From assembly GCA_020725405.1 (NCBI GenBank), contig DYFB01000039.1:44428-108427 (forward strand): a stretch of DNA of 64,000 bases, read 5' to 3'. This DNA is from Symbiobacterium sp. (GTDB lineage Bacteria; Bacillota; Sulfobacillia; UBA995; UBA9673). Below are positions 11,888-50,079 of this stretch, piece after piece; positions within the stretch are counted from its first letter, which is position 1; every line of letters begins with the position of its first letter. The position numbers were made by a program, and so were the translations under genes. The notes beneath the pieces are model-generated. The model did not search any database. It worked only from the letters and a program-made list of their open reading frames with translations, and was not told the origin of the DNA.

Positions 11888-11984
11888 TCGTCGTATCCCC
11901 CGTTTCATGTCCCGCGGCCCTCGACGGGGCGGTCGCCCCGCGGCGCCGCGAGAGCCATGTCCGATGAAGGCCAAGCAAAAACCG

Positions 11985-12175
11985 CGTCCTCCGGAAGAAC
12001 GCGGTCGGGGTCCGACCACACCAGCCCCTGTTGTCCCGCCCGTCACCGGACGGTTTTGTGGGACCTTTCCGGCCTGTGGTCAAGGCCGCCGGGCACCCGC
12101 CGAAACTTCGAATAACCCGGTCCTCGTCAACTCCCGCCGCCTCACGACCTCGCGGGAGTTCCGGCGCTAGGTCTT
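11985..12175 (-). ncRNA. glmS ribozyme (GlcN6P-responsive self-cleaving riboswitch) in the glmS 5' leader
   Basis: Minus-strand transcript reads ...GACCU A|GCGCC GGAACUCCC...GGGAGUUGACGAGGACCGGGUUAUUCGAAGUUUCGGCGGGUGCC... It has the canonical cleavage-site AGCGCC (A at 12168), the core GACGAGGA and a UUAUUCGAA segment. Location between glmM and glmS matches the Firmicutes arrangement. Confidence 0.8.
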
Positions 12176-12289
12176 TCCTGAGACCTTTCTCGTGAGCCAA
12201 TACCTTCCCGGCCGTCTTCCAGGGACCTCCCGGACACCCCGTCCGGGCCCTTCGAGTCTGTCCGCCCGTCCTGCGGCTGGGTCACCGCG

Positions 12290-30360: not shown

Positions 30361-30554
30361 CGCCCTGTCGCCCTGGCCGTGAGCCCGCCGCGCCAATCCT
30401 GGCGCTCCCGCCCGAGGAGGCCCCGCTGTCTGAGCGGAAACCCACATCTGGGCTTCCATTCCACTTGCCAGGGAACTCTCCCGTTCGTAGCGAAAAGTGT
30501 CAGGAGTTGGCGCTTTGCCCCGGAGCAAGCCCTAATCCACTGGCGAGGGAGCCT

Positions 30555-33500: not shown

Positions 33501-33911
33501 GACCAGGCTCATCACGACGCCCGGGTGGAGGCTCTGGCCATGGAGTACGCCCGCCGCTACGAGGAGGACCTCGGCGCCGTGGTGAAGGACGTCTCCACAG
33601 CGGACCGGGCCCGCGAGGCCGGCCTCGGCGACCGGCCCGGCTTCGACCTCCTCTCCCGGCGCCCCGATGGGCAGGAGCTGTGCATCGAGGTCAAGGGCCG
33701 GGCCCACGCCGGTGAGGTCGAGGTGACCCGGAACGAGTGGGCCCAGGCCTGTAACCTGGGTCCGCGGTACTGGCTCTACGTGGTCTACGACTGCGCCACC
33801 CGCCAGCCGAGGTTGCGCCGGATCCAGGACCCCTTCTCCCGGCTCCTGGCCAGGACCAAGGGGAGCGTGCTCATCAGCGAAGCGGAAATAGCCGAAGCGG
33901 CGGAGGGATGA
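30555..33911 (+). CDS. SNF2-family helicase (DEAH box) with a C-terminal DUF3883-like PD-(D/E)xK nuclease-like domain (BrxHII-like; 'HmaA'-like)
   Basis: Start at ATG 30555 (GAGGGAG RBS); the ORF track's TTG at 30465 is less likely. Helicase motifs: I DDAGAGKT, II VVFDEAHKL, VI QRMGRIHRYLQ. C-terminal segment ...DGQELCIEVKG...YWLYVVYDC carries a D..E.K signature. Confidence 0.9.
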   Translation: MSAVPAIPEIDFSADPEAVRLVAEAHRLSYGHLANPGFAAEVSLIDPLPHQRIAVYDHILNQRPLRFLLADDAGAGKTIMTGLYIREMLSRRLLRRVLVVPPAGLVSNWRRELATLFGLRARVITGADASRASGSGDSPNPFRGPGSDLAIVSVDTLAGQKVFSRLAEPGVEPYDLVVFDEAHKLAARQDPDGRIVKTDRYSLAEALAGVKTSEPRFRLDWHARNLLLLTATPHMGKDFPYYCLWRLLEPEALATFEAFSAYPPAERRHHFLRRTKEEMVDFSGRPLYPPRHCDTVSYELTQGGESEQELYDETTKYISSYYNRARLLNRTAVRLAMSVFQRRLASSTYALMRSFERRLEKLEAIMDDLRSGRLTADQLLIRQRRLDSTRDLLDEATADEEGVEHGEESSEAAERNLLGGVVAVNLAELEVEKAKVAELLDLARRVAAKGSGAKFERLLEVLGDARFAEEKFLIFTEHRDTMDFIARRLEALGYTGQVARIHGGLDAAERDRQIEFFRAPAGAGGARFMVCTDAAGEGINLQFCWLMVNYDIPWNPARLEQRMGRIHRYLQTREVRIINLVAGNTREGRVLKTLLDKLQLIRERLGSDKVFDVVGRLFEGVSLREYMEMAVTEAGVEAAARFIEGRLTPEQVEALEARERLLYGDRGDVKRELPALKDRLEQEGLRRLLPGYVRHFVLGAAPVLDLALEGPVDGRFTFRPLRPGALDPFLPASEAYPPDWQTLFTIERPAREEKVVFLRPGEPFFESLREAVASRLEGSALRGGVFTDPHATGPYLFHLALVSVVRRRDPADPGFAEELLLEERVVGVRQDESGNMELCPIEHLLLLRGAPGALPVGRLAAAPLEYREQARRFAMTRVAEVRAEDIRERLRLELARRREAVRQGYDYRLAELGESRVRLRKAASEGDRRAAGELEAVKREQERVTAEAQAASRRLEREPDLVAPGEVRFLAHALVLPSADSEDQAHHDARVEALAMEYARRYEEDLGAVVKDVSTADRAREAGLGDRPGFDLLSRRPDGQELCIEVKGRAHAGEVEVTRNEWAQACNLGPRYWLYVVYDCATRQPRLRRIQDPFSRLLARTKGSVLISEAEIAEAAEG

Positions 33912-33918
33912 ACTCGCG

Positions 33919-36900
33919 GTGGAACCCAGCGGACCGACCGGACGGCGCCTCATCGAGGCGACCTTTCCGCTGAGGCAGGCGTCACTCGACTCCGTGCACG
34001 AGAAGAACGTCCGGCACGGGCATATCTCCACCCTGCACATCTGGCCGGCCCGGCGACCCCTGGCCGCCTGCCGGGCCGCGCTCATCGCCACTCTCCTGCC
34101 GGACCCCGGGACTTCCGAAGAGCGCCGGCGGCTCGCGGAGAGAATCGGCGGGAGGGTTGTCGAGCGTCGCGAGATGAAGAAGGTCGGCTCCCGGGAGGTC
34201 GAGACGGTCCGGGAGGAGACCGAGGGAGGACTCCTCCACTGGGGGCGGGAGAACAGCCCCGACCTCGACTGGTTCCGGGAGGAGATCCGCAAGGCCTACG
34301 GCGGCAGGGCTCCGAAGGTGCTGGACCCCTTCGCCGGTGGAGGGTCCATACCCCTCGAGGCCATGCGCCTCGGCTGCGAGGCCATCGCGATGGACATCAA
34401 CCCGGTGGCGTGGTTCATCCTGAAGTGCACGCTGGACTACCCCCACCGGATGGCCGGTAAGACCCTGCCTCTGCCCAAGGCGGCCCTCGAGTCGGCCGAG
34501 TTCATGGAGGCCTTCCTGCGAGGGACGGGGAGGGTCAAGAAGAAGGCGGACCTTGAGCGGCAGCTCCAAGGGGTGCAGCTCGGCCTCTTCCCGCCTCCCG
34601 AGGCCGACCTCGCTTGGCACGTGCGGGCGTGGGGTCGCTGGGTCTTCCAGCGGGCCAAGGTGGACCTCGAACGCTTCTACCCGGTGGTCGACGGGAAGCC
34701 CACGGTGGCCTACCTGTGGGCGAGGACGGTCAAGTGCAAGAACTGCCGCGGGGAGGTGCCTCTCCTCAAGACCAGGTGGCTCTGCCGTAAGCCGGATAAG
34801 AAGGTGCTCCTCACCCTGCGCACGGAGCCGGGCAAGGCCGAGGCCGACTTCGGCGTCCGGGTTCTCCGGCCTGACGAGGTGGTGAACGACGCCGACACCA
34901 AGGGTACCATGTCCAGGGCCGGGGCGACCTGCCCGCACTGCGGCGTCATCACGATGATGGAGGACCTCCGCCAGGAGGGTCGCGCCGGTCGCCTAGGGCA
35001 GCGGTTGGTGGCCGTGGTGGTCGAGGGGGCCCGTGGAAAGGAGTATCGACCTCCCACCGGTGAGGAGATACGGAGGGCATCGGAGGCTGGGGGCGCGGTC
35101 GCTTCGGCGTTCGACGGAGTACCCTTCGGGACCCCCGACGAACCGCTTCCGGCCAAGGAGGCGCTCGGCATCCGGGTCCCACTCTACGGCTTGGATACCT
35201 GGGGGAAGCTGTTCAACCCTCGCCAGCTGCTCGCCCTGGGAAGCTTCGTCCGCCATACTCGTGCGGCACGGGAGGCGATGCATGCTCACGAGTACTCCCC
35301 AGAGTGGGTCGAAGCGGTGGGGACCCTTCTAACCCTCGTAGTCGATAAACTCGCGGACTATAACGCGAGCCTAACGACATGGAACACGCCTGGGGAAAAG
35401 ATGAGGAACGTCTTTGTCCGGTTCGCCCTGCCCATAACGTGGGATTATGCTGAGCTTAACCCCCTTTCACAGTCTACCGGGAACTACCTAGCCTGCCTAG
35501 AGTGGGTGGCCCGGTCAACGGAGCATACCTCTCTAGCTGCGCTGAGGTGTCCCTTCCCGCAAAGCGTTCTCGGCTCGGCTATCCGCCTACCTGCCGAGCA
35601 GGGGACGGTGGACCTCGTGGTGACCGACCCGCCGTACTACGACGCCATACCCTACTCGGATACGATGGACTTCTTCTACGTCTGGCTACGCCGGAGCACG
35701 CACGGGCTGGCTCCGGACGTCGATGCGGCCTTTTCCGAAGAGCTCGGCCCGAAGTGGGACGGGCCTCGAGAGGAAGGAGAGCTTATCGACGACGATAGTC
35801 GCTTCGGTGGTGACCCCCAAAGGTCCCGGGCCGCCTACGAAGCCGGCATGCTTAAGGCGTTCCAGGAGTGCTACCGAGTCCTCCGCCCCGAGGGGCGGCT
35901 CGTGGTCGTCTTCGCCCAGAAGAACCCTGCGGCGTGGGAAGCCCTCGTTTCGGCCATGCTTCGAGCGGGCTTCGTGGTCACCGCAAGTTGGCCGGTGCAA
36001 ACCGAGAGGGAGACCCGCACTAGAGCACTGTCCGGAGCTGCCCTCTCCTCGTCAGTCTGGCTTGTCTGCCGCAAGCGCCCGCCGAGCGCCCGACCCGGGT
36101 GGGATAACCAGGTCCTCGAAGAGACGCGCGCACGCCTCTGGGGCGTGCGGGCTGACGAGGTCGGCGAGTGGGTGTATCGCCCCACCCTCCGCGAGTTCTG
36201 GGATGCCGGGATTCGCGGCCCCGATTTCGTCTGGGCGGCCACCGGTCCGGCGCTCGAGGCCTACAGCCGCTACCCGGCGGTGAAGAAGGCCGACCGGCCC
36301 GATGAACTCCTGACCGTGAGCGAGTTCCTCCGCCACGTGCGTCGCCTGGTGGTGGATTTCGTCGTCGGCCGCGTGCTCACCCCGGAAGGAGAGCCGTCGG
36401 CCGCGCCCCCGCTAGACGACGTAACGACCTACTACCTCCTTCACCGGCAGGCTTTCCAGTTTTCCGAGACCCCCATCGGCGCGGTCATCCTCTATTCCGT
36501 GTCGTGCGGGCTCTCGGACCGCGACCTCGTGGAGGAGTACGACCTCCTTTCCCGCAGCGGCGGGAGCACCGCGCCCGCCGACCTGGAAGAGGACGGTTCG
36601 GATTCCGGGGAGGACGCCCAAGAAGAGGGAGAGGAAGAGGAAACCGCCGGCGCTTCCGGCGGCACCTCAAAGGTCCGGCTCAGGCCCTGGCACCAACGCC
36701 GGGGCAAGCGCATGGGTTACGAGAACGGCGGCCGGCCGGTGCCGCTGATAGACCAGGTCCATCGGCTGATGCATCTCTGGAAGACCGGCGACGTGCGCGC
36801 GGTCAACCACTACATCGGCGAGCGGGGTCTGCAATCAAGCGGCGTGTTCGCTAGGCTCCTCCAGGCCCTCATCGAGCTCTCGCCCGTCGGAGACGAGGAG

Positions 36901-37023
36901 CGGACGCTCCTGGAGAGCATCAGCAACCACCTGGCCGGGCTCCGGCTGGCTCGCCGGCCCGACCAGCTCTTTGACAGCCAGCAGGCTCCTGAAGAGCCCT
37001 TTCGGGGAGGCGTAAAGTCATGA
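33919..37023 (+). CDS. DUF1156-type DNA methyltransferase (N6-adenine/N4-cytosine class; PglXI-like; 'HmaB'-like)
   Basis: GTG start 8 nt after the helicase stop. N-terminal DUF1156 signature (IEATFPL...HISTLHIWPARRP). Motif I VLDPFAGGGSIPLEA. Cys4 Zn-ribbon insertion (CKNCRG...CPHCG). Motif IV VVTDPPYYD about 440 aa after motif I. Confidence 0.9.
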   Translation: MEPSGPTGRRLIEATFPLRQASLDSVHEKNVRHGHISTLHIWPARRPLAACRAALIATLLPDPGTSEERRRLAERIGGRVVERREMKKVGSREVETVREETEGGLLHWGRENSPDLDWFREEIRKAYGGRAPKVLDPFAGGGSIPLEAMRLGCEAIAMDINPVAWFILKCTLDYPHRMAGKTLPLPKAALESAEFMEAFLRGTGRVKKKADLERQLQGVQLGLFPPPEADLAWHVRAWGRWVFQRAKVDLERFYPVVDGKPTVAYLWARTVKCKNCRGEVPLLKTRWLCRKPDKKVLLTLRTEPGKAEADFGVRVLRPDEVVNDADTKGTMSRAGATCPHCGVITMMEDLRQEGRAGRLGQRLVAVVVEGARGKEYRPPTGEEIRRASEAGGAVASAFDGVPFGTPDEPLPAKEALGIRVPLYGLDTWGKLFNPRQLLALGSFVRHTRAAREAMHAHEYSPEWVEAVGTLLTLVVDKLADYNASLTTWNTPGEKMRNVFVRFALPITWDYAELNPLSQSTGNYLACLEWVARSTEHTSLAALRCPFPQSVLGSAIRLPAEQGTVDLVVTDPPYYDAIPYSDTMDFFYVWLRRSTHGLAPDVDAAFSEELGPKWDGPREEGELIDDDSRFGGDPQRSRAAYEAGMLKAFQECYRVLRPEGRLVVVFAQKNPAAWEALVSAMLRAGFVVTASWPVQTERETRTRALSGAALSSSVWLVCRKRPPSARPGWDNQVLEETRARLWGVRADEVGEWVYRPTLREFWDAGIRGPDFVWAATGPALEAYSRYPAVKKADRPDELLTVSEFLRHVRRLVVDFVVGRVLTPEGEPSAAPPLDDVTTYYLLHRQAFQFSETPIGAVILYSVSCGLSDRDLVEEYDLLSRSGGSTAPADLEEDGSDSGEDAQEEGEEEETAGASGGTSKVRLRPWHQRRGKRMGYENGGRPVPLIDQVHRLMHLWKTGDVRAVNHYIGERGLQSSGVFARLLQALIELSPVGDEERTLLESISNHLAGLRLARRPDQLFDSQQAPEEPFRGGVKS

Positions 37024-40000
37024 TTTCAACCCCGACCTTCACTCCGTGGCACAAGGTGGTGCGGCTCCGCGACGACCTCCGGTCCGGGGAACTTCCCCTG
37101 GCCATCTTCGCCGCCGATCTCTACGCGGTCCGGATGGCGACGGCCCCACCGGTCTACCGGGACCCCCGGGAGTTCTTCTCGCTGACCTACCCGGCCCACA
37201 ACCTCCGCAGGCTGGCCAAGGAGGTCATGGACCGGCTCGCCGGCCGGAGCGAGCGAGCCGTCCGCCAACTCGAGCTCACCTACGGAGGCGGCAAGACCCA
37301 CGCCCTCATCACCCTCTACCACCTCGTGAACGACCCAGAGACGCTTCCGGAGGACCTTCCGGCCGTACGCGAGTTCATCGTGCACGCTGGGCAGCGCCCG
37401 CCCAAGGCCCGCGTGGCCGTGCTGGCCTTCGACAAGCTGGACGTCGAGAAGGGCATGGAGGTGCCCGGCCCCGACGGCCGGAAGCGGTGGCTCCGCCATC
37501 CCTGGAGCGTCCTCGCCTACCAGCTCGCCGGCTCGGAGGGTCTGCGCCTCCTCCACGCCGCGGACCGGGACGAAGAGCGCGAGAGCCCCCCGGCGGAGAA
37601 CCTCCTCACCGAGCTCCTCGCCATCCCCGCCCGCGCAGACCTGGCCACTCTCATCCTCATCGACGAGGTCCTGATGTACGCCCGCGAGAAGGTGGCCCTG
37701 GACCCCACCTGGAGGGCGCGGCTCGTGGACTTCTGCCAGTACCTCACCCAGGCCACCACGGCCGTTCCGCGCTGCGCCATCGTCGCTTCACTCCTGGCCA
37801 CCGACCCGCGCAAGTACGACTCCCTGGGCCGCGAGCTGGCGAAGGACCTCTCCGACATCTTCCGCCGGGAGAAGGAGGAGAGCATCCAGCCCGTCCTCAA
37901 GGAGGACGTGGCCGAGATCCTCCGCCGTCGTTTCTTCACGCCGGAGTCGACCCGCGACCACGAGCTCTTCCGGCCGCACGTCATAGCGGCTCTACAGGGC
38001 ATCCAGGCCCTGGACGAGGCCACCGCTCGTCAGGGCCCTGAGGCCGAGGAGAGGTACCTGGCCAGCTACCCCTTCCATCCAGACCTCACCGACGTCTTCT
38101 ACACCAAGTGGACCAACCTCGAGGGCTTCCAGCGCACCCGGGGTATCCTCCGCACCTTCGCCCTCGCCCTGCGCGAGGCGGAACGCTGGGACACCTCGCC
38201 CCTGGTGGCCGCCAACGTCTTCCTCAGCGAGCCCGGCCGGACCGATCTCTCCCCGGCGGCCCGGGAGCTCACCGGGGTAGCCGCCACCGAGGAGTACGAG
38301 GGTAAGAGGCAGGAGTGGACCGCCATCCTTGAAGGGGAACTGGCCAAGGCACGAGCCATACAGGAAGAGTGCCCGGCCCTTCGTCACCGCGAGGTGGAGC
38401 AGGCCGTCTTCGCGACCTTCCTCCACTCCCAGCCGGCGACCCAGAAGGCCCTCACCCGGGAACTCATGGTTCTGGTCGGAGCCACCTGCCCGGACCGGAT
38501 CGAGCTCGGAAAGGCCCTCCGGCGATGGGCGGAGGTCTCCTGGTTCCTCGACGAGGCCGGCCTCCAAGACGTGGAGAACGGTCCACAGGGAGAGCGATTC
38601 CTGCCCCGAACGTGGCGTCTGGGCTCCCGGCCTAACCTGACCCAGATGCACCACGACGCCTGCGGCCGCGTATCGGCGGAGTTGGTCGAGGCCCGGCTGC
38701 TTGAGGACATCGCCAGGACCAAGGACCTTACGGCCGGTGCCGGTAAGGCCGGGGCCAGGGTTCACACCCTGCCGGAGGCGCCCAACGACATCTCCGACGA
38801 CTGGGAGTTCCACTATGCGGTGCTCGGGCCGAAGGCCGCGTCCGAGCCGGGTAAGCCCAGTGCCGAGGCCGTCCGCTTTCTCACCGAGACCTCCGGCCCG
38901 CAAAAGCCCCGGGTCAACCAGAACGCCGTCGTCCTGGCCGTTCCGGCCCGGGAGGGGCTCGAGATCGCTCGGAGCCGCGTCCGTGACTACCTTGGGTGGG
39001 AGGAAGTGGCCCAGCAGCTCAAGGAGCAGAAGGTCCACGACCCCCTGCGCACGGCGGCCCTGAACGCCCACCTCGATGCAAGCCGCAAGGCCATCCCGGC
39101 CGCCGTCCAGCAGGCCTACTGCATCGTCGTCACCATCGGACGAGACGGCGGACCCGAGGCCTTCAGAGTCACCGTCGGCGACCGGCCGCTGTTCGAGGTT
39201 ATCAAGGCCGACGAGCGCTCGCGCATCCGCGAGTCGGCTGTGGCGGCCGGCGCCCTCCTACCCGGCGGCCCGTACGACCTGTGGGAGGAAGGCGAGACCT
39301 CGCGCCGGATGCGGGACCTCGTCGGGTCCTTCGCCCAGTTTCCACGCCTGCCGAAGATGCTCAACTCCCAGGCCATCCTGGACACCCTCCTGGCTGGCTG
39401 TCAGAGCGGCCTCTTCGTGATGCGGCTGACCCGGCCCGACCGCTCGGTCCGCACCTTCTGGCGGGAGAGGCCGGACGATGTGGCCGTGAAGGATCCGAGC
39501 CTCGAGGTGGTTCTGCCCCAGGGGGCCGCTCTAACGGAGCTGGCCCCGTCTCTTCTCGAGCCCGGCGCTCTGCCGGGACTGTGGCCGCAAGAGGGGAGGT
39601 TCAGGGTGGGCGACCTTTACGCCTACTTCGCCGGCGGCCACTCCGTGGCCGTTTCGCGCGGGACGTACGAGGAGACCGTCGTCATCCCCGCGGCCCCGCG
39701 GGAGGTCGTGGACGTGGCCGTGCGCGCCGCGGTAAGGGAGGCCAAGGTGTGGCTCCTCGCCGCCGGCGGGGCGGCCAGCGTCTGCGAGGAGGACATCCCG
39801 CCGGGGCTGCTCACCGAGAACGCCATCCTCCAGGGGCCGCCGGAGCCTCTGTCGCCCACGTCCATCCTGCCGGACGCCCTGCCGGCGGCCTGGCCGGGGC
39901 CACCGCCCGGCTCGGTCGAACGCCTTACCAGCGCCCTGGCCATCCTAGACGCCGCCTCGGCCAGAGCCGGGCTGACCCTGCCTTGGGCGGTGGTCCGCCG

Positions 40001-40346
40001 GGCCATCGACGGGGCCCTTCGGACCCGGCTCCTCGAGCTGGCCGACGGCTCGGGCCCTTGGCCGTGCGAGCTAACGGCGGCGAAGGACGTCAGGCTGAGG
40101 GAGAGGAAGGCTGGCGGCGGCCCCGTGCCACCTGAATGGCCCAAAGTGGCCCAGGCTGACCTCGAACCGAACGAGCTCCAGGAGCTGGCGGACCAGACCG
40201 CCACCCTCCTCAAGGTCGCGGGCCGCGAGAAGGTCAAGTACCACGTCCGCATCGAGCTCTCCGAGACCGATGCGGAGACCCTCGAACAAGTCGCGAACGT
40301 GCTCCTTGCCGTGAGCCCGCGCTTGCGGCTGAAAGAGAGTGGTTAG
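37020..40346 (+). CDS. DUF499-like P-loop ATPase (BrxC/PglY-like; 'HmaC'-like)
   Basis: ATGA overlap with the methylase stop. N-terminal TPWHKVVRLRDDL...FAADLYAV...FFSLTYPAHNLRRL...LELTYGGGKTHALITLYHL (Walker-A-like GGGKTH). 1108 aa, with size and architecture like BrxC. Confidence 0.85.
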   Translation: MISTPTFTPWHKVVRLRDDLRSGELPLAIFAADLYAVRMATAPPVYRDPREFFSLTYPAHNLRRLAKEVMDRLAGRSERAVRQLELTYGGGKTHALITLYHLVNDPETLPEDLPAVREFIVHAGQRPPKARVAVLAFDKLDVEKGMEVPGPDGRKRWLRHPWSVLAYQLAGSEGLRLLHAADRDEERESPPAENLLTELLAIPARADLATLILIDEVLMYAREKVALDPTWRARLVDFCQYLTQATTAVPRCAIVASLLATDPRKYDSLGRELAKDLSDIFRREKEESIQPVLKEDVAEILRRRFFTPESTRDHELFRPHVIAALQGIQALDEATARQGPEAEERYLASYPFHPDLTDVFYTKWTNLEGFQRTRGILRTFALALREAERWDTSPLVAANVFLSEPGRTDLSPAARELTGVAATEEYEGKRQEWTAILEGELAKARAIQEECPALRHREVEQAVFATFLHSQPATQKALTRELMVLVGATCPDRIELGKALRRWAEVSWFLDEAGLQDVENGPQGERFLPRTWRLGSRPNLTQMHHDACGRVSAELVEARLLEDIARTKDLTAGAGKAGARVHTLPEAPNDISDDWEFHYAVLGPKAASEPGKPSAEAVRFLTETSGPQKPRVNQNAVVLAVPAREGLEIARSRVRDYLGWEEVAQQLKEQKVHDPLRTAALNAHLDASRKAIPAAVQQAYCIVVTIGRDGGPEAFRVTVGDRPLFEVIKADERSRIRESAVAAGALLPGGPYDLWEEGETSRRMRDLVGSFAQFPRLPKMLNSQAILDTLLAGCQSGLFVMRLTRPDRSVRTFWRERPDDVAVKDPSLEVVLPQGAALTELAPSLLEPGALPGLWPQEGRFRVGDLYAYFAGGHSVAVSRGTYEETVVIPAAPREVVDVAVRAAVREAKVWLLAAGGAASVCEEDIPPGLLTENAILQGPPEPLSPTSILPDALPAAWPGPPPGSVERLTSALAILDAASARAGLTLPWAVVRRAIDGALRTRLLELADGSGPWPCELTAAKDVRLRERKAGGGPVPPEWPKVAQADLEPNELQELADQTATLLKVAGREKVKYHVRIELSETDAETLEQVANVLLAVSPRLRLKESG

Positions 40347-40658: not shown

Positions 40659-42344
40659 CTACAGCCAGACCAGGCGGTGCCCCGGGTCGACGGCCGCCCC
40701 CGGGGGGACTAGCGGCAGTCCCGCCAGGGCGTCGGCGAGGCCGGGACCGTACTTGACAAGATAGGGGAAGATGTTGAACACCCGCTCCTGGTAGTCGCCC
40801 CGCGGCCGGAGGGAGGCACCCACGACGTCGAAGCGGCCAAGGGTCTCCCGGCTCTTCCGGCGGTGCTCCTGCCAGACCTTCTTTCTGAGCCACTCCGCCT
40901 CGGCCAGAACCTTCCCGCGGTTCTTTGCGGCAAGCTCCTTGAGCGAGGTTTCCACGCCGGCCACCACGCCGGTGAGGGTCTCGTACTCGTCCGCGATCAA
41001 CCGGGCCAGGCGGTCGAAAGCCTTGTCGATGCCCACAGGGTCGGCCCGGTCGAGCCAGCTCGCCCGCGCCGCCTGCAGGGCCTCCGGGTCGAGAGCGGAC
41101 GCGGGATCGAGACCGAGCCGGTCGAGGTGCCGCGCGACCGACGGCTCGATGATGGTGACCCCGGGGCGCGGGTAGACAATCGGCATCCGGCGGCCGAGCC
41201 GGTGGTAGACCTCGCGGTAAAGGCCGAAATAGCTCGTCTCGCCCGGGCCTCCGACGTAGGCCAGGACCGGAAGGAGCATGTCCTGGCCGACCGGCCGCAG
41301 GACCACGTTGGGACTCAGCCGCTCCGGGCTCGCGGCGACCATCTCCAGAAGGTCCCGCCGGGTCAGGGTCTCCGCCCGGTCCTGGCCGTGTCCCGGACCG
41401 AGCTCGAAGACGTCGGCCGACAGCCGGCGGAGCGGGACCCGCTCCATCCCCCGATAGACGTAGAGGTTGGCCGACTGCGGGTCCTTGTCCACCTGGGGCT
41501 CGAAACCGAGGTCCCGCACCCGCCTCTGGCCGAGGGCGAAGGCCTCGGCGAGGGCCTCGTTCTCCTCGACCATCCGGCGGAAGGCCGGCCTCTGGAGAGC
41601 CCGGAGACCCGGGTCGAGAGGGTTGGCCACGAGGAGGCCGCGGTCCCCGAAGAGAGCAAAGAGGAGCCGTCCGAACCACTCGCCGAGGTCGGTCGACGCG
41701 GCCGCGGTCTCGCGGAGAAGACCGACGACCCCGGCGGTGAACTCCGTGGACCACAGCGACGTCTCGACCTCCGCCAGGAAGGCCTCGACGGCCGGGCCGG
41801 TCGGGAGGCTGCCGACCGACGTCCGGGGAGCGAACCCGCCGCCGGGGTCGTAGGCGTGGCGGACGATGTCGCCTCGAGGAGTAAGAACGTGCACCTGGGA
41901 TATCTCGGCAAGGTCGTGGTCTTCCGCGCCGACCCAGAAGACCGGGACGACCTTGGTCCCGGCCGGGAGGAGTTGCCGGACCTCCCCGGCGAGCTCGATG
42001 ACGACGGCGGCCTTCCAGAAGGTGTAGAGGGGCCCGGTCAGGACCCCGGGCTGCTGGCCGCCGATGACGACGACGGACCCGGGGTCGGCCAGGTCCTCCG
42101 CCGCGGCCAGGACCGGGGCCGGGGCCCCGAGCGACCGGGCGTAGGCCGCCAGAACGGCCGCGAGGGCCTCGCGGTCGCCCTCAAACCGCTGTCTCAGCTC
42201 CTCGAGGCGGTGGCCGTACGAAGCCGGGTCGTGGGGTGAATGGTCGTAGAGATGAGCGACAGTGTCAAAGCAGTGCAGGTAGGCCGCCCACAGCGGGTAG
42301 CGGGGGTCGGACGTCGGCGTCGTCGATACGCGGTATCCGGTCAT
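40659..42344 (-). CDS. bshC: Bacillithiol biosynthesis cysteine-adding enzyme BshC (YllA family)
   Basis: 561 aa, with a GGQQ motif and overall YllA/BshC-like length and composition. Recalled family resemblance, not a computed match. Confidence 0.7.
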   Translation of the reverse strand: MTGYRVSTTPTSDPRYPLWAAYLHCFDTVAHLYDHSPHDPASYGHRLEELRQRFEGDREALAAVLAAYARSLGAPAPVLAAAEDLADPGSVVVIGGQQPGVLTGPLYTFWKAAVVIELAGEVRQLLPAGTKVVPVFWVGAEDHDLAEISQVHVLTPRGDIVRHAYDPGGGFAPRTSVGSLPTGPAVEAFLAEVETSLWSTEFTAGVVGLLRETAAASTDLGEWFGRLLFALFGDRGLLVANPLDPGLRALQRPAFRRMVEENEALAEAFALGQRRVRDLGFEPQVDKDPQSANLYVYRGMERVPLRRLSADVFELGPGHGQDRAETLTRRDLLEMVAASPERLSPNVVLRPVGQDMLLPVLAYVGGPGETSYFGLYREVYHRLGRRMPIVYPRPGVTIIEPSVARHLDRLGLDPASALDPEALQAARASWLDRADPVGIDKAFDRLARLIADEYETLTGVVAGVETSLKELAAKNRGKVLAEAEWLRKKVWQEHRRKSRETLGRFDVVGASLRPRGDYQERVFNIFPYLVKYGPGLADALAGLPLVPPGAAVDPGHRLVWL

Positions 42345-42459: not shown

Positions 42460-43539
42460 TCAGATGTCGTTGGGGTGGATCTTTCCCCCCTCCTCCCCAT
42501 TCGGGAAGACCTTGAGAATGCCCGGCTGGAGGCCGGCGACCCGGCTCAGGGTCGAGTCGTCGAGCGGGCTCAGGACGGTAGCGGTTCGACGGCGGAAATC
42601 GACAGCCCTCAGGATGCCGACCCCGAGAAGCTGGCCGCTCCGGTCAATGAGTCCAGTAAGGAGGTTCTCGAACTTGTCGACCTTGGTCAGGAAGACCTCT
42701 TCGACTCTCTCCCGCTCCTTGATGCGCTGAAGCCCGTCGAGCTCGAAGTAGCCGTCGGCCACGATGAAAATGCCGTCGGCGAGCCACTCGGCGTGAGCGA
42801 TGCGGCAGCGCAGGTCGGTCGCGAGGAGGGCCGTCTCGCTCTCGTCCATCGGCCGCCCGGTGAGGTACGTGCTGCGGAACAGGGCGGTCCGGCTGAGGTC
42901 GAACTCGTGCAGGGCGGCCCCGGCGAAGTACTGGCGGTAAGCCTTCTCGCGGGCCGCCCGCCGGTCGCGACGGCTCTTCTCCGTGGCCCGCGGCGAGACC
43001 GGGAGACGCCTCACCTGCACGATTGGACTCCCCAGGACCTCCCAGGGCCGGAGAAGATGCTCCAGCTCGATATCCCGCTGGAGGGCCAGGACATGGGTCG
43101 GCTCGATGAGCTCTATCTTCGCGTTCTTGAGGAATCGAGCCGTCCGCCCCCAGACGAGCCCGGTGGTATCGATGATCACGACGTCGGGCTCGGACGACAA
43201 GGCCCGGTCCACAGCGGACTTGGCCGCCGCGGCGGTGGTGAAGCTGAGAAGCTCGGGCGAGTTCGACCCGACGAAGTAGCCGTGGGCCAGGGGAATGTCC
43301 CGGAGGCGCTCGATGGGTCCCTGGGCGAAACCGCAGCCGACGGACCCCGGGGGACCGATCTCCGATTGCCCCACGTCGGCGTCGACCACCGCAGCCTTGA
43401 GGCCGGCGCTGACGGCGACGTTGGTCAGGAAGGCCGCCAGGGTGGTCTTGCCCGTGTCCGTCGCTCCGAGAAGGAACAGCTTCAAGGGACGCGCCCCCGA
43501 GGCGAAGATGTCCTCGGCGGCTCTCTTCCACTCTCTCAT
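42460..43539 (-). CDS. Clp1/Grc3/Nol9-family P-loop polynucleotide 5'-hydroxyl kinase-like protein
   Basis: Walker A LLGATDTGKTT, the Clp1-characteristic DADVGQSEIGPPG segment (compare eukaryotic DLDPGQ), and Walker-B-like VVIIDTTGLVWG (compare Clp1 INTCGWVKG). Confidence 0.65.
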   Translation of the reverse strand: MREWKRAAEDIFASGARPLKLFLLGATDTGKTTLAAFLTNVAVSAGLKAAVVDADVGQSEIGPPGSVGCGFAQGPIERLRDIPLAHGYFVGSNSPELLSFTTAAAAKSAVDRALSSEPDVVIIDTTGLVWGRTARFLKNAKIELIEPTHVLALQRDIELEHLLRPWEVLGSPIVQVRRLPVSPRATEKSRRDRRAAREKAYRQYFAGAALHEFDLSRTALFRSTYLTGRPMDESETALLATDLRCRIAHAEWLADGIFIVADGYFELDGLQRIKERERVEEVFLTKVDKFENLLTGLIDRSGQLLGVGILRAVDFRRRTATVLSPLDDSTLSRVAGLQPGILKVFPNGEEGGKIHPNDI

Positions 43540-43595: not shown

Positions 43596-44174
43596 TCAGG
43601 CGTCTCCCGCCGGGTGGTCGCCCTGCCCGTAGAGCGACAGCACGGTCTCCCCGTAGGTGTACTCGCGCACCAGGCGCAGGGCCCCGGCTCGGGCGGGGAG
43701 CTCCTCCTTCCGGTGCCTCTGGACGAAGACGAGACCGTCAGGGGCCAGGACTCCGGTCCGGTCGATAAGGTCGAGGACCCGCGGGCCGAGGCCCCGGAAG
43801 TACGGCGGGGCCACGCCGATAACGTTAAACCGTGCTTTATTGGCTGCTAGCCGCGGAAGCTCCTGCAGGACATCTCCTCGAATTACCGTGGCCCGGGCGG
43901 CGAGTCCGGTCGTTTCGAGGTTCTGGCGGATTATCCGGACGGCCTTGGGGTCGAGTTCGACCATGACCACGGCCTCGGCCCCGCGGCTCAGGGCCTCGAC
44001 GCCGTAGCTGCCGGTGCCGGCGAAGAGGTCGAGCCAGCGGGCGCCGGGGGTGATCGGCTGGAGGATGTTGAACACAGCCTGCCTGACCCGGGCCAGTGGA
44101 GGGCGTGTCGACGCCCCGGGCACCGACCGGATGCGCCGGCCCCGGGCCGACCCTCCGAGTACGCGCACTCCCAT
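43596..44174 (-). CDS. rsmD: 16S rRNA (guanine966-N2)-methyltransferase RsmD
   Basis: Start at MGVRVLGG (ATG 44174). Motifs LDLFAGTGSYGVEALSRGA and IGVAPPY (DPPY variant). Confidence 0.85.
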   Translation of the reverse strand: MGVRVLGGSARGRRIRSVPGASTRPPLARVRQAVFNILQPITPGARWLDLFAGTGSYGVEALSRGAEAVVMVELDPKAVRIIRQNLETTGLAARATVIRGDVLQELPRLAANKARFNVIGVAPPYFRGLGPRVLDLIDRTGVLAPDGLVFVQRHRKEELPARAGALRLVREYTYGETVLSLYGQGDHPAGDA

Positions 44175-44202
44175 CACCGTCCTTGACGGCTCAGGACGAC
44201 GG

Positions 44203-45225
44203 TCAGTCCTCCCCGCCCTCGCCGCCCCGTGAGCCGCCCCTGTAAAGGAAGCGGTCGAGGGTCCGGTGGTAAGTGAACGGCGACCCCGCGTCACGGTCGC
44301 TCTCAGAACGGAAGTGCTCCTGGATGGTGTCGACCTTGGCCGTGAGGTCGTCCACGCAGTGGAGGATCATGGCTTCGAGAGTCTTGGGTCGCTTCGGGGA
44401 CCCCCACTCGTACTGGCCATGGTGGCTCAGGACCATGTGCCTCAGCTCGAGGAGCGTTTCGGCGGGGAAGCCGGGCAAGCGGCCGGCCCGCTCGGTGACC
44501 ATCTCCGCACCGAGGACGATGTGGCCGACGAGGCGCCCCTCCACGGTATAGTCGAACTGCCGGGTCCAGGAGAGCTCCTTGGTCTTGCCGACATCGTGGA
44601 GCAGGGCCCCGGTGACAAGAAGGTCGGTGTCCAATCTGGGAGCGGCCTTGTCCCCCGGAAGGGACCGGTAGCGCCCGGCGACGTCGAGGCAGATCTCGGC
44701 CACGGCCAGCGTGTGCTCGAGCAGACCCCCAAGGGTGGCGTGGTGAATCGTCTTGGCCGCCGGGGCCCGCCGGAAGAGGGCCCAAAACTCCGGGTCGGTG
44801 AAGAAGCTTTCATTCAGGGCCCTGAGGTGCGGGCACGCAATCGCGGCGATAAGGTTTCTCAGCCGCTGCTCCATCTGTTCGGGGTCCTGGATGCTGGTCG
44901 GCTGGAAGTCGGCCAGGTTCACCTGCTCTTCCGGCACGGCCTCAAGGTCGGTGACGTTTATCTGCCGCTGGCCGTTGTAGAGGCTCACCTTGCCCACGAC
45001 CCGGACGAACCCGCCCACGGTCACAGCCGCCTGGAGGACTTCGGCGTTGTCCCAGACGCGGGCCTGGACACACCCGCTGGCGTCGCAGAGCTCCAGAGCC
45101 AGGAACGGCCCTTTCGACGAGCCGACCCGCCGGAGGTCCTTCGAGCAGACGAGATAGACCTCGTCTACGGTCTGGTTCTCCCGGAGGTCGCGAACGAAGG
45201 CCCTTGTCTTCTGGAACAGGGCCAT
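44203..45225 (-). CDS. yhaM: 3'-5' exoribonuclease YhaM (OB-fold + HD domain)
   Basis: N-terminal OB fold (FLALELCDASG...VRVVGKV) and HD phosphohydrolase domain (HTLAVAE...LHDVGK). Confidence 0.85.
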   Translation of the reverse strand: MALFQKTRAFVRDLRENQTVDEVYLVCSKDLRRVGSSKGPFLALELCDASGCVQARVWDNAEVLQAAVTVGGFVRVVGKVSLYNGQRQINVTDLEAVPEEQVNLADFQPTSIQDPEQMEQRLRNLIAAIACPHLRALNESFFTDPEFWALFRRAPAAKTIHHATLGGLLEHTLAVAEICLDVAGRYRSLPGDKAAPRLDTDLLVTGALLHDVGKTKELSWTRQFDYTVEGRLVGHIVLGAEMVTERAGRLPGFPAETLLELRHMVLSHHGQYEWGSPKRPKTLEAMILHCVDDLTAKVDTIQEHFRSESDRDAGSPFTYHRTLDRFLYRGGSRGGEGGED

Positions 45226-45284: not shown

Positions 45285-45578
45285 TCAGAGCACGGCCGCC
45301 GCCACGGCGGCCACCTGAACGACCAGGAGACCCAGCGCGGCGAGCGCGAGTTTACGGTTCCCTTCGGCGCGGTAAGTTACCAGCGCCAAGACGGATTGAG
45401 CCGCCGGGAGGACGAACATCGTCAGGATGCCGAGGGAGACGAGGATGACTCCCTCCCGTTCCCGGCCGGCCGCCAGGCAGACGACAAGGCCCGCGACGAG
45501 CAGGGTCAGGCTGACGGCGACGCCGACCCTCAGGACCAGACCCAGCCGCTCGTAGAGCCGTTCGTCGTGGACTCCCAA
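45285..45578 (-). CDS. Small membrane protein (DUF1634-like), partner of the TauE/SafE gene
   Basis: 97 aa with two TM helices, immediately downstream of the DUF81 gene as in many genomes. Confidence 0.5.
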   Translation of the reverse strand: MGVHDERLYERLGLVLRVGVAVSLTLLVAGLVVCLAAGREREGVILVSLGILTMFVLPAAQSVLALVTYRAEGNRKLALAALGLLVVQVAAVAAAVL

Positions 45579-49299: not shown

Positions 49300-49420
49300 C
49301 CTTCAAGTGCTCAACCAAAGGCACGTGGCAGAGTAGATGTTCCCGCGTTAAGTGCCAGAGGATGGGAGGTCGCCTCTGGACGAAAGGCGGGCCGCGACCG
49401 GTCCGCCTGCGGTGGGGCAT
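49300..49420 (+). ncRNA. THF (tetrahydrofolate) riboswitch upstream of folT
   Basis: GGCAGAGUAGAUGUUCCCGCGUUAAGUGCCAGAGGAUGGGAGG... matches the conserved THF-I core (AGAGUAG...CGCGUUAAGUGCC). Lies directly 5' of an ECF folate S-component gene. Confidence 0.7.
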
Positions 49421-49503
49421 CGCTTCCGCTGTCACATCAAAGACGCCTCCGTCTCTGGTGTGGCCTGCCGGCCTGCCTGAAGAGAAGGGAGGTGTCGTTG
49501 TTC

Positions 49504-50079
49504 ATGCCTACAAGCAGCACGAGGCGTCTTGCCTACCTTGGTCTTCTGGTCGCCCTGGCCGTCGTCCTTACGCGCTTTGCCAGCGTGAGGGTCGCCATCG
49601 GCGGGATCGAGGGCGTACGGCTGGGGCTCGGGCACTTCCCTCTCATCATGGCCGGCGTTCTTTACGGTCCTCTCGCCGGCGCCGCGGCCGGCGCCGTTGC
49701 CGATATCACCGGCTTCTTCATCAGCCCGATGGGTCCGTACATGCCCCACTTCACCCTGACGGCGGCGCTTACCGGGGCCTTGCCCGCCCTCTTCCTCGCG
49801 GTGATGAGGCCGAGGCGGGCCGGGGCCCCGTCCCTCGCCCGACTCGCGGCGGCCATCGCGCTCTCGCAGGGGATAGTGGCGGTCATCCTTGTCCCCTACT
49901 TCCTGAAGGCCCTTTTCGGACTGCCACCGGCGGTGACCGTGCCCCCCAAGGTCGTTGAGCAGGCCATCGTCATCCCGTCCTACGCCCTTCTCCTGCACCT
50001 CCTCCTGCGGAGACTCACCGGCCTCGTCCCGGTCTGGGAAAGGCCGGACCTCGCCCGGAACCCGACGGGCTCGCGGTAG
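49504..50079 (+). CDS. folT: ECF transporter S component, folate family (FolT)
   Basis: Start at ATG 49504 (GGGAGGTG RBS). ~190 aa, 5-6 TM, typical FolT-like composition. Confidence 0.8.
   Translation: MPTSSTRRLAYLGLLVALAVVLTRFASVRVAIGGIEGVRLGLGHFPLIMAGVLYGPLAGAAAGAVADITGFFISPMGPYMPHFTLTAALTGALPALFLAVMRPRRAGAPSLARLAAAIALSQGIVAVILVPYFLKALFGLPPAVTVPPKVVEQAIVIPSYALLLHLLLRRLTGLVPVWERPDLARNPTGSR

Follow-up and report, generated by a model that had tools for sequence, protein, structure and literature searches.

A bacterial Clp1-family polynucleotide kinase homologue with a predicted archaeal-type C-terminal domain

The clp1 gene of this 64,000-nucleotide stretch of Symbiobacterium sp. DNA, the whole of which we call the window, is genuine and belongs to the Clp1 family, of which bacterial copies are rare, and what differs from the Thermus scotoductus enzyme Ts-Clp1 is its predicted architecture, in which an archaeal-type C-terminal domain is retained. 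As a whole, the sequence evidence is best explained if the product is a Clp1-family kinase that phosphorylates polynucleotide 5'-hydroxyl ends with ATP and that combines the two domains of the archaeal enzymes, without the eukaryotic N-terminal domain, and we consider this reading likely. It is a correctly recognisable and already annotated family member and not a system of a new type, since bacterial Clp1 proteins were described in 2019. The novelty implied in the original prediction was overstated in this respect: NCBI already names the identical protein 'Clp1/GlmU family protein', and bacterial Clp1 as well as the activity of Ts-Clp1 had been published.

42460..43539, minus strand: clp1-like gene, 359 aa plus stop, two-domain Clp1-family polynucleotide 5'-hydroxyl-kinase homologue
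42919..43467, minus strand: kinase (CLP1_P) domain, residues 25-207, Pfam PF16575 profile positions 1-188 of 188
42463..42918, minus strand: C-terminal domain, residues 208-359, archaeal Clp1_aC type, aligning with Thermococcus Clp1

The open reading frame begins with ATG and ends in a stop codon at 42460-42462. Its GC3 of 0.88 is what genuine genes of the window, which has 69% GC, usually show, a Shine-Dalgarno-like run, GGGGGAGG, is found 5' of the ATG, and the N-terminus M(K/R)EWKRAAE is kept in relatives. An NCBIfam profile search returned no model for the protein, and Pfam CLP1_P (PF16575) matches it over the whole profile with 134 bits (E 7.3e-39; gathering cut-off 26.6 bits). When 18 relatives are combined into a profile, it matches human CLP1 (E 1.1e-21) and C. 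elegans Clp1 (E 1.4e-21) in alignments that extend through the lid helix, and the combined sequence and profile alignment with these two proteins runs through all four of the motifs listed below. The AF2 model is confident (pLDDT 94.1, pTM 0.90), and the first 22 PDB matches found by Foldseek are all Clp1, Grc3 or NOL9 structures, including C. elegans Clp1 (4oi0, E 3.4e-18) and human CLP1 (8hmy_E, E 1.1e-17), with query TM-scores of about 0.6 over about 365 columns. The protein is thus by sequence and predicted fold a Clp1/Grc3-family kinase-like protein, and the family identity given in the original prediction is upheld by the profile match, the fold and the conserved catalytic motifs.

43441..43467, minus strand: P-loop (Walker A), G25-A-T-D-T-G30-K31-T32-T33, fits GxxxxGK[S/T]
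43366..43383, minus strand: Clp1 'Walker B', D53-A-D55-V-G-Q58, fits [D/E]hhQ
43147..43176, minus strand: clasp, I122-I-D124-T125-T-G127-L128-V-W130-G131, aligns with human VINTCGWVKG
42925..42972, minus strand: lid helix, R190-R-D-R193-R-A-A-R197-...-Y-F205, aligns with human RSKDFRRECRDERIREYF

The definition of the P-loop follows Pillon 2018 and Saito 2019 (PMC6777427), and that of [D/E]hhQ follows Saito 2019. Conservation was counted in an alignment of 83 Clp1 family members. The P-loop residues G25, G30 and K31 are kept in 82 of the 83, the remaining sequence being gapped there, and position 32 is Thr or Ser. The same fraction, again with one gapped sequence, holds for D53, D55 and Q58 of the segment that aligns with ELDVGQ of human CLP1, in which D55 would serve as catalytic base and Q58 corresponds to the conserved Gln. 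Of the lid arginines (RxxxR), R193 is found in 82/83 members and R197 in all 83. The clasp T125-T-G127 is conserved, with G127 invariant in the 83 members; L128, the residue aligned with the clasp Trp of human and other eukaryotic Clp1, varies (Leu in 41, Trp in 20 and Phe in 15 of the 83, Phe being the residue of archaeal-type proteins), and W130, two residues further on, is lineage-specific. In the definition of the clasp, T-x-G is followed by a hydrophobic residue or Trp in contact with the RNA, a stacking position that Leu may or may not be able to fill. Mutagenesis has identified the motifs required for kinase activity (Pillon 2018), and these are present in the window protein, with Leu at the Trp position of the clasp, and kept in 82-83 of the 83 relatives. 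The three segments quoted earlier, LLGATDTGKTT (containing the P-loop G25-T33), DADVGQSEIGPPG (which begins at D53-Q58) and IIDTTGLVWG (residues 122-131), are all present, and the CLP1_P match shows that they did not arise by chance. The last had been called a Walker B/clasp region, and only the second half of that name is apt: papers on Clp1 use 'Walker B' for the D-x-x-Q segment (D55 to Q58 in this protein), which holds the catalytic Asp, and 'Clasp' for the TTG segment (Pillon 2018; Saito 2019, PMC6777427).

Homology to C. elegans and human Clp1 is the basis of the mechanism that we propose. K31 and T32 of the P-loop would bind ATP-Mg2+, D55 of the D-x-x-Q motif would activate the terminal 5'-OH, the 5'-terminal nucleotides would be held by Q58 together with the clasp residues T125, G127 and L128, and the lid arginines R193 and R197 would stabilise the gamma-phosphate in transfer. 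The predicted product is a 5'-monophosphate end on ssRNA and, with lower efficiency, on ssDNA, a pattern shared with other Clp1 enzymes of prokaryotes. As far as we can infer it, the role in the cell would most likely be the conversion of 5'-OH ends, such as those left by metal-independent RNases, toxins or ribozymes, into 5'-phosphate ends fit for processing, degradation or ligation; the literature surveyed yielded no in vivo role for any bacterial Clp1.

The closest parallel in layout is archaeal Clp1 of the Thermococcus and Pyrococcus horikoshii Ph-Clp1 type (Jain & Shuman 2009, as reported in Saito 2019, PMC6777427), with which the window protein shares the short N-terminus, the CLP1_P kinase domain, the Clp1_aC C-terminal domain and the motif set. 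Identity to a Thermococcus Clp1 is about 37% across 95% of the length, and residues 208-359 alone match residues 210-351 of Thermococcus Clp1 P0046 with 31% identity (E 5e-15). The P-loop begins at residue 25, which leaves no long N-terminal domain, and the 152-aa C-terminal domain is folded in the AF2 model and conserved in the 18-sequence alignment; Pfam also reports a weak NOL9_C match at residues 304-339. The differences from the archaeal proteins lie in clasp position 128 (Phe there, Leu here), in the host, a bacterium (a Bacillota MAG) in which tRNA splicing by endonuclease and ligase is not expected, and in gene context, since archaeal loci have Obg-like GTPase and CitG neighbours and the order yhaM-rsmD-clp1-bshC is without an archaeal counterpart. 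CitG, which adjoins some archaeal Clp1 homologues, is a dephospho-CoA-using enzyme.

Ts-Clp1 supplies the functional precedent. It has 5'-OH kinase activity in vitro, prefers ssRNA over ssDNA, and has properties described as very similar to those of Ph-Clp1 (Saito 2019, PMC6777427). Unlike the 359-aa window protein, with its predicted archaeal-type C-terminal domain and invariant lid arginines, Ts-Clp1 is a kinase-only protein of ~27 kDa that has no N- or C-terminal domain and a poorly conserved lid (Saito 2019, PMC6777427). The length of the window protein and its folded, conserved C-terminal domain rule out assignment to this kinase-only type. Bacterial Clp1 was said to be without the archaeal C-terminal domain, and this supposed absence was used as an argument against transfer (Saito 2019, PMC6777427); because such a domain is present here, the clade of the window protein breaks that generalisation. 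Two-domain archaeal-type Clp1 is found in a bacterial clade that includes Bacillota, Armatimonadota and others, and it bears on the origin of clp1 in bacteria, whether by transfer from archaea or as an ancestral gene. Eukaryotic Clp1 (human, C. elegans) and Grc3/NOL9 share with the window protein the kinase fold, the catalytic motifs and a faint C-terminal motif, G-x-G-x-x-x-x-x-D-x-x-x-R-T-x-x-x-L-x-P, but they differ in the N-terminal domain, which is missing here, in the clasp Trp, which is replaced, and in their TSEN, Pcf11 or Las1 partners, of which the window protein has none; identity in the structural alignments is 17-19%. The reaction predicted here, phosphorylation of 5'-OH ends, is also that of T4 Pnk and bacterial Pnkp-Hen1 in RNA repair, but these belong to a different kinase family: the Pfam search found no T4-Pnk-type domain in the window protein, which is neither fused to a phosphatase or ligase nor accompanied by Hen1 in the window.

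The family is uncommon in bacteria, as had been claimed. Bacterial Clp1 was recorded in 14 of 1,543 species (0.9%) (Saito 2019, PMC6777427), and we find that at least 139 of 185,579 species genomes match one Clp1 peptide pattern and that 2,255 of 1.84 billion protein clusters matched. Ammonifex thiophilus is a carrier that can be cultivated. The neighbours of the window gene are those originally named, bshC on one side and rsmD and a yhaM-like gene on the other, all on the minus strand.

44203..45225, minus strand: yhaM-like gene, OB-fold and HD-domain 3'-5' exonuclease, Pfam HD and tRNA_anti-codon
43596..44174, minus strand: rsmD (16S rRNA m2G966 methyltransferase), TIGR00095 150 bits against a cut-off of 117.5
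40659..42344, minus strand: bshC (bacillithiol synthesis), TIGR03998 462 bits

The yhaM-like gene lies 28 nt upstream of rsmD, which lies 56 nt upstream of clp1, and bshC follows 115 nt downstream of clp1; these spacers hold no predicted terminator. The YhaM-like protein matches the solved YhaM structures 9h3f (E 7.1e-45 over residues 19-302) and 9o7t (E 2.3e-35, near full length), and it scores 180 bits with the NCBIfam YhaM model, under the 460-bit equivalog cut-off. The product of rsmD has 192 aa in the source assembly, and its start is likely the ATG at 44174, not the longest-ORF start at 44294. From the shared strand and the short spacers, clp1 is probably co-transcribed with the yhaM-like gene and rsmD; since promoter and terminator prediction in the high-GC DNA of the window gave no calls, we only infer the operon. 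A consensus scan found no regulatory RNA or terminators around clp1, the two spacers flanking it show no more folding than shuffled sequence (z -1.6 and -0.3), an Rfam search found nothing near it, and the window holds no tRNAs. We give bshC as context only and propose no functional link to it.

The arrangement yhaM-rsmD-clp1-bshC is found only in the closest clade, one Bacillota lineage with Clp1 at least 46% identical. Throughout this lineage, down to 46% Clp1 identity, clp1 keeps a yhaM-like gene at the second place upstream, and in the 46% sub-clade an unrelated 108-aa membrane protein stands in place of RsmD. The block from bshC through CoA-transferases to YbbR and GlmM is syntenic between the window and that sub-clade, so the adjacency of yhaM and rsmD to clp1 may simply be inherited with its surroundings. 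Restricted to one lineage and set in a broadly syntenic region, the order is weak functional evidence, and the RNA repair or processing role that the original prediction drew from the adjacency of YhaM and RsmD is weakly founded. It had also been remarked that clp1 occupies the position where coaD usually follows rsmD. This is fair as description, since one Limnochordales relative has the order recG-rsmD-coaD, but the idea that clp1 functionally replaces coaD is rejected and the position carries no functional weight: of the three Clp1-less relatives examined only that one has rsmD next to coaD, after recG, and the other two have a solitary rsmD. Because the rsmD of the window follows yhaM, not recG as in the Limnochordales relative, rsmD has moved and coaD was not simply swapped out. 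A defence role for clp1 was likewise set aside; the gene matches no PADLOC-DB family at E <= 0.001, and the adjoining HmaA/B/C island is missing from relatives that keep clp1, so the Hma system and clp1 are unrelated.

The same evidence bears on other readings of the protein. Bacterial members of the family were earlier annotated as GTPases (Saito 2019, PMC6777427), and the window protein has weak, sub-threshold matches to SRP54, CbiA and ParA; it could on these grounds be some other P-loop NTPase, such as a MinD/ParA/SRP-type ATPase or a GTPase, or else a small-molecule kinase of thiol or CoA metabolism, to which the adjoining bshC, the place of clp1 where coaD lies in other Firmicutes, and the nearness of some archaeal homologues to CitG would point. 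We regard this as extremely unlikely. The rival Pfam families, SRP54 and CbiA/MinD among them, stay under 22 bits and under their own cut-offs, against 134 bits for CLP1_P, so that the family assignment made earlier stands against MinD/ParA and GTPases; SRP54/FtsY, the next family found by Foldseek, begins at E 4.5e-5, 13 orders of magnitude weaker and confined to the P-loop core; and the family has kept the D-x-x-Q, clasp and lid motifs, which are specific to nucleic acids. The adjacency of clp1 and bshC is interrupted in relatives by unrelated genes (a hydrolase in one, SIR2 in another) and is missing outside the lineage. A Clp1 protein can also have lost its activity: that of S. cerevisiae retains the Clp1 fold and the ATP site yet is catalytically inert (Saito 2019, PMC6777427), and an inert, ATP-binding scaffold, for example one that recruits or regulates another nuclease, would fit with the unconserved clasp Trp. 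Such a scaffold is very unlikely, since the inactivity of the yeast protein is ascribed to accumulated mutations in its kinase domain (Saito 2019, PMC6777427), whereas K31, T32, D55, Q58, R193 and R197 are intact here and conserved family-wide, and the closest characterised relatives, in archaea and Thermus, are active.

If the protein is a kinase, its substrate could be mainly DNA, with the enzyme phosphorylating 5'-OH ssDNA ends in uptake or repair alongside the YhaM-like enzyme as a 3'-deoxyribonuclease. Ts-Clp1 and Ph-Clp1 do phosphorylate ssDNA (Saito 2019, PMC6777427), a recent report describes B. subtilis YhaM as a conserved 3'-deoxyribonuclease that ssDNA uptake requires, and the yhaM-like gene keeps its place throughout the lineage. 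Ts-Clp1, however, requires far more enzyme on DNA than on RNA (Saito 2019, PMC6777427), the window has no competence, recombination or DNA-repair genes near clp1, and the link to YhaM is limited to one lineage within a broadly syntenic region; we therefore judge a mainly DNA-directed function unlikely and retain the polynucleotide 5'-hydroxyl kinase with a preference for RNA.

Across the Clp1 family, gene context offers no consistent partner. In other phyla a histidine-phosphatase gene recurs close behind clp1; this pairing occurs in three Clp1 clades that diverge deeply and that include Armatimonadota MAGs, unclassified MAGs and a Bacillota MAG, and another Armatimonadota clade has an NTP_transf_5 nucleotidyltransferase beside clp1. 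We found no report of the pairing of Clp1 with a histidine phosphatase in the literature surveyed, and no NCBIfam model scores above its cut-off for the linked phosphatase. The pairs resemble the kinase and phosphatase logic of Pnkp, and their recurrence hints at split end-healing modules. More broadly, bacterial Clp1 might be the 5' half of such modules, with a 3' partner that depends on the lineage (a YhaM-type HD/OB 3' exonuclease in the clade of the window, elsewhere a histidine phosphatase, perhaps translationally coupled, or NTP_transf_5), yhaM-rsmD-clp1 might be an operon for RNA, possibly rRNA, end repair or quality control, and the archaeal-type Clp1 might be shared with, or transferred to, bacteria; this is speculative, and we hold it to be rather unlikely in this full form. 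If a pairing of kinase and 3'-end enzyme were true, it would make a new, simple bacterial route of RNA end healing, and the locus offers candidate partners that can be tested, YhaM here and a histidine phosphatase or nucleotidyltransferase elsewhere.

Within the window, Pfam annotation of every large ORF brought up neither RtcB nor another RNA ligase, and no CoaD or phosphoesterase. No tblastn match in the window to the histidine phosphatase, NTP_transf_5, SIR2, the 108-aa protein or E. coli CoaD was better than E 0.1. A further candidate that we rejected, as a possible Las1/HEPN-like nuclease partner, is a protein of 162 aa whose gene lies divergently upstream of clp1 in 21 distant loci; Pfam gave no hit for it, and the window has no copy. 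By eye, its N-terminus is a hydrophobic segment, the globular domain after it is putatively NTF2-like, and no nuclease motif is obvious.

The gene that the original prediction had called Clp1-like is present on the minus strand and uninterrupted, and its GC3 of 0.88 matches that of other genes in this window of 69% GC. A purine-rich run, GGGGGAGG, lies upstream of its start, and the N-terminus of the product (window Clp1) is kept among homologues in the sequence alignment. Pfam CLP1_P (PF16575), the HMM proposed as a check on the gene, matches residues 25-207 at 134 bits (E 7.3e-39), in an alignment spanning the whole 188-position profile. Because CLP1_P matches and the SRP54, CbiA/MinD and ParA-type models reach at most 22 bits, all under their cut-offs, the Clp1 assignment stands against a different P-loop family. 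With a profile built from 18 relatives, the region between P-loop and lid helix aligns to human CLP1 at E 1.1e-21 and to C. elegans Clp1 at E 1.4e-21; AlphaFold2, run with the 18-relative alignment, gives a highly confident model (mean pLDDT 94.1, pTM 0.90). When the PDB is searched with this model in Foldseek, the top 22 matches are without exception Clp1, Grc3 or NOL9 chains (~365 aligned columns, query TM-score ~0.6); the next family, SRP54/FtsY, begins at E 4.5e-5 and covers the nucleotide-binding core only.

All three motifs quoted in the original prediction are found in window Clp1, LLGATDTGKTT with its P-loop at residues 25-33, DADVGQSEIGPPG beginning at residues 53-58 and IIDTTGLVWG at residues 122-131, and they are not chance matches. 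We took motif definitions from Pillon 2018 and Saito 2019 (PMC6777427), where the P-loop is GxxxxGK[S/T] and the Clp1 "Walker B" is [D/E]hhQ.

Clp1-like gene of the window and catalytic elements of its product
42460-43539, minus strand: clp1-like ORF, intact, ATG start, 359 codons
G25...G30-K31-T32: P-loop, fits GxxxxGK[S/T]
D55-V-G-Q58: Clp1 "Walker B", fits [D/E]hhQ
T125-T-G127-L128: clasp
R193, R197: lid arginines

G127 and R197 occur in all 83 family members taken from public genomes, K31, D53, D55 and Q58 are kept in 82, the remaining sequence having a gap, R193 is kept in 82, with one Lys, and position 32 is always T or S. The sole motif departure is the clasp position aligned with the eukaryotic Trp, which is Leu in window Clp1; among the 83 members, 41 have L there, 20 have W and 15 have F.

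By analogy with C. elegans and human Clp1, window Clp1 is probably an ATP-dependent 5'-OH polynucleotide kinase. Its P-loop would bind ATP-Mg, D55 would serve as base, Q58 and the clasp would hold the terminal nucleotides, and R193 and R197 would stabilise the transition state; the predicted substrate is ssRNA, with ssDNA used less well. The data show family membership, fold and conservation of the motifs; activity, substrate, operon and cellular role are inferred from them. Ts-Clp1 of Thermus scotoductus, the one characterised bacterial enzyme, phosphorylates ssRNA with a Km for ATP of 2.5 uM, and ssDNA at higher enzyme levels (Saito 2019, PMC6777427). An unlikely alternative is that window Clp1 phosphorylates DNA ends together with YhaM as a 3'-deoxyribonuclease, a YhaM activity with published precedent. 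An inert ATP-binding scaffold, as in yeast Clp1, is less likely still, and the near-invariant catalytic residues have to be set beside it; another NTPase or small-molecule kinase is the least probable of these.

The kinase domain begins ~24 residues from the N-terminus, so window Clp1 is without the eukaryote-type N-terminal domain. A second domain, residues 208-359, is conserved and is well folded in the AlphaFold2 model; on its own it can be aligned to the last 142 residues of a Thermococcus Clp1 (31% identity, E 5e-15), and it carries a faint NOL9_C/Clp1-C signature, G-V-G-I-L-x-x-V-D-F-x-x-R-T-x-x-V-L-S-P. This kinase plus C-terminal layout is that of archaeal Clp1, whereas Ts-Clp1, at ~27 kDa, has neither terminal domain (Saito 2019, PMC6777427). 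According to the same study, the archaeal C-terminal domain is missing from bacterial Clp1, which its authors hold against an archaeal origin. The window Clp1 clade is an exception to this statement, and the modest new point is that an archaeal-type Clp1 C-terminal domain occurs in bacteria. Many relatives (P0205, P0225, P0227, P0231 and others) are ~415-440 aa long, with a ~78-aa N-terminal extension before the region matching window Clp1, and probably represent the "long N-terminus" prokaryotic class of Saito 2019 (PMC6777427).

The family is known and already annotated: NCBI holds an identical protein, "MAG: Clp1/GlmU family protein [Bacillota bacterium]", and the window maps to GCA_040754035.1, contig JBFMDS010000009.1. 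A survey of the Clp1 family across all domains found it in 14/1,543 bacterial species (0.9%) (Saito 2019, PMC6777427). Searching 185,579 species genomes with a single peptide pattern, we confirmed 139 relatives, a lower bound, in carriers including Bacillota, Armatimonadota, Ammonifex thiophilus, Halanaerobiales, Desulfobacterales and many archaea. An exhaustive HMMER search of 1.84 billion cluster representatives gave 2,255 matches with E-values up to 1e-3, of which 376 reached 1e-30 or better, and the two scans agree that bacterial homologues are uncommon, as had been said. In a crude NJ tree with no support values, window Clp1 groups with other Clostridia and Halanaerobiales sequences.

The minus-strand order is TauE, 97-aa ORF, yhaM-like, rsmD, clp1, bshC.

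Further genes of this run
45285-45578, minus strand: 97-aa ORF between TauE and yhaM, called in three independent assemblies
43596-44174, minus strand: rsmD, 192 aa from the ATG at 44174, a start backed by an AAGGA Shine-Dalgarno-like site and by the source annotation

The longest rsmD ORF (43596-44294, GTG at 44294) would overlap the yhaM end by 92 nt; the ATG at 44174 leaves a 28-nt gap. No Pfam family matches the 97-aa product, which appears hydrophobic and may be a membrane protein. The yhaM-like product has OB and HD domains, matches the solved YhaM 9h3f (E 7e-45) and is a true YhaM-family member. Spacers of 28, 56 and 115 nt separate yhaM-like, rsmD, clp1 and bshC, with no promoter-like or terminator-like sites found around clp1 and no significant structure in its flanking spacers, and from the spacers and the missing terminator-like sites co-transcription is plausible.

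Every close relative whose Clp1 is at least 46% identical has the yhaM-(rsmD)-clp1-...-bshC order. In the 46% sub-clade (L006:7652-7978; L015, L016) an unrelated 108-aa membrane protein replaces rsmD, its start overlapping the yhaM stop, with a hydrophobic C-terminal stretch and no Pfam match; a SIR2 deacetylase gene is inserted between clp1 and bshC, and the downstream CoA-transferases, CdaA, YbbR and GlmM are syntenic with the window. Loci with Clp1 below 46% identity have no YhaM, RsmD or BshC nearby. Because the adjacency is confined to close relatives and the wider region is syntenic, it fits plain inherited synteny. The original prediction is confirmed in its observation and partly supported in its interpretation: YhaM and RsmD are neighbours as described, and adjacency is weak functional evidence for the RNA role drawn from it. 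The suggestion that clp1 takes the usual place of coaD was checked in three Clp1-less relatives: one, a Limnochordales genome, has rsmD-coaD (recG-rsmD-coaD-...-rpmF), and the other two have a solitary rsmD. As the gene upstream of rsmD is another one in the window, the position says nothing about function. No CoaD, RtcB/RNA ligase or phosphatase partner and no tRNA genes are present in the window.

When neighbour proteins were clustered without bias in ~75 clp1 loci, three companions recurred outside the window's clade. A ~214-aa His_Phos_1 phosphatase (Pfam E 1.5e-58) lies directly downstream of clp1 in 15 loci, and its gene frequently touches or overlaps the clp1 stop codon (L027:7056-7718, L032-L034, L036-L039, L044, L046, L050, L054, L057, L065, L090). 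In the NJ tree these loci are spread over three Clp1 clades that are deeply separated, and as their Clp1 proteins have a median pairwise identity of 36% (minimum 29%), the two genes have been linked for long or are kept together by selection. The RHG catalytic start is present in the phosphatase, which has no NCBIfam equivalog assignment, and our literature search found no paper joining Clp1 with histidine phosphatases. An NTP_transf_5 (PF14907) nucleotidyltransferase gene lies directly downstream of clp1 in 8 Armatimonadota loci (including L008:9091-10158), and a ~162-aa protein is divergently encoded upstream in 21 loci (including L008:7247-7735); the latter has no Pfam match and, judged by eye, seems membrane-anchored and possibly NTF2-like, with no nuclease features. 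The clp1-His_Phos_1 pair is reminiscent of end healing by T4 Pnk and Pnkp and may be such a kinase-phosphatase pair. By this analogy, the data suggest that the partners of bacterial Clp1 may be 3'-end enzymes that differ between lineages, of which YhaM could be one in the window's lineage; that bacterial Clp1 belongs to split end-healing modules is a tentative idea, and we consider it rather doubtful.

A complete Hma defence system occupies window 30465-40346 on the plus strand, convergent to bshC.

30465-33911, plus strand: HmaA, SNF2 helicase with NOV_C (PADLOC E 3e-152)
33919-37023, plus strand: HmaB, DUF1156 adenine methylase (PADLOC E 3e-113)
37020-40346, plus strand: HmaC, DUF499 ATPase (PADLOC E 2e-76)

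Since the system is absent from the related loci L004 and L006, which both keep clp1-bshC, it has the look of an inserted island, with bshC on one side and the Amidohydro_3/PRD-regulator genes on the other. Two RNA elements are also present.

12013-12179, minus strand: glmS ribozyme/riboswitch (Rfam 92.7 bits), upstream of glmS (10037-12046)
49327-49433, plus strand: THF riboswitch (74 bits), just upstream of an ECF-transporter S-component gene (~49504-50079)

Self-cleavage of the glmS ribozyme is known to leave a 5'-OH product, so that this organism has in it a natural source, among others, of 5'-OH RNA.
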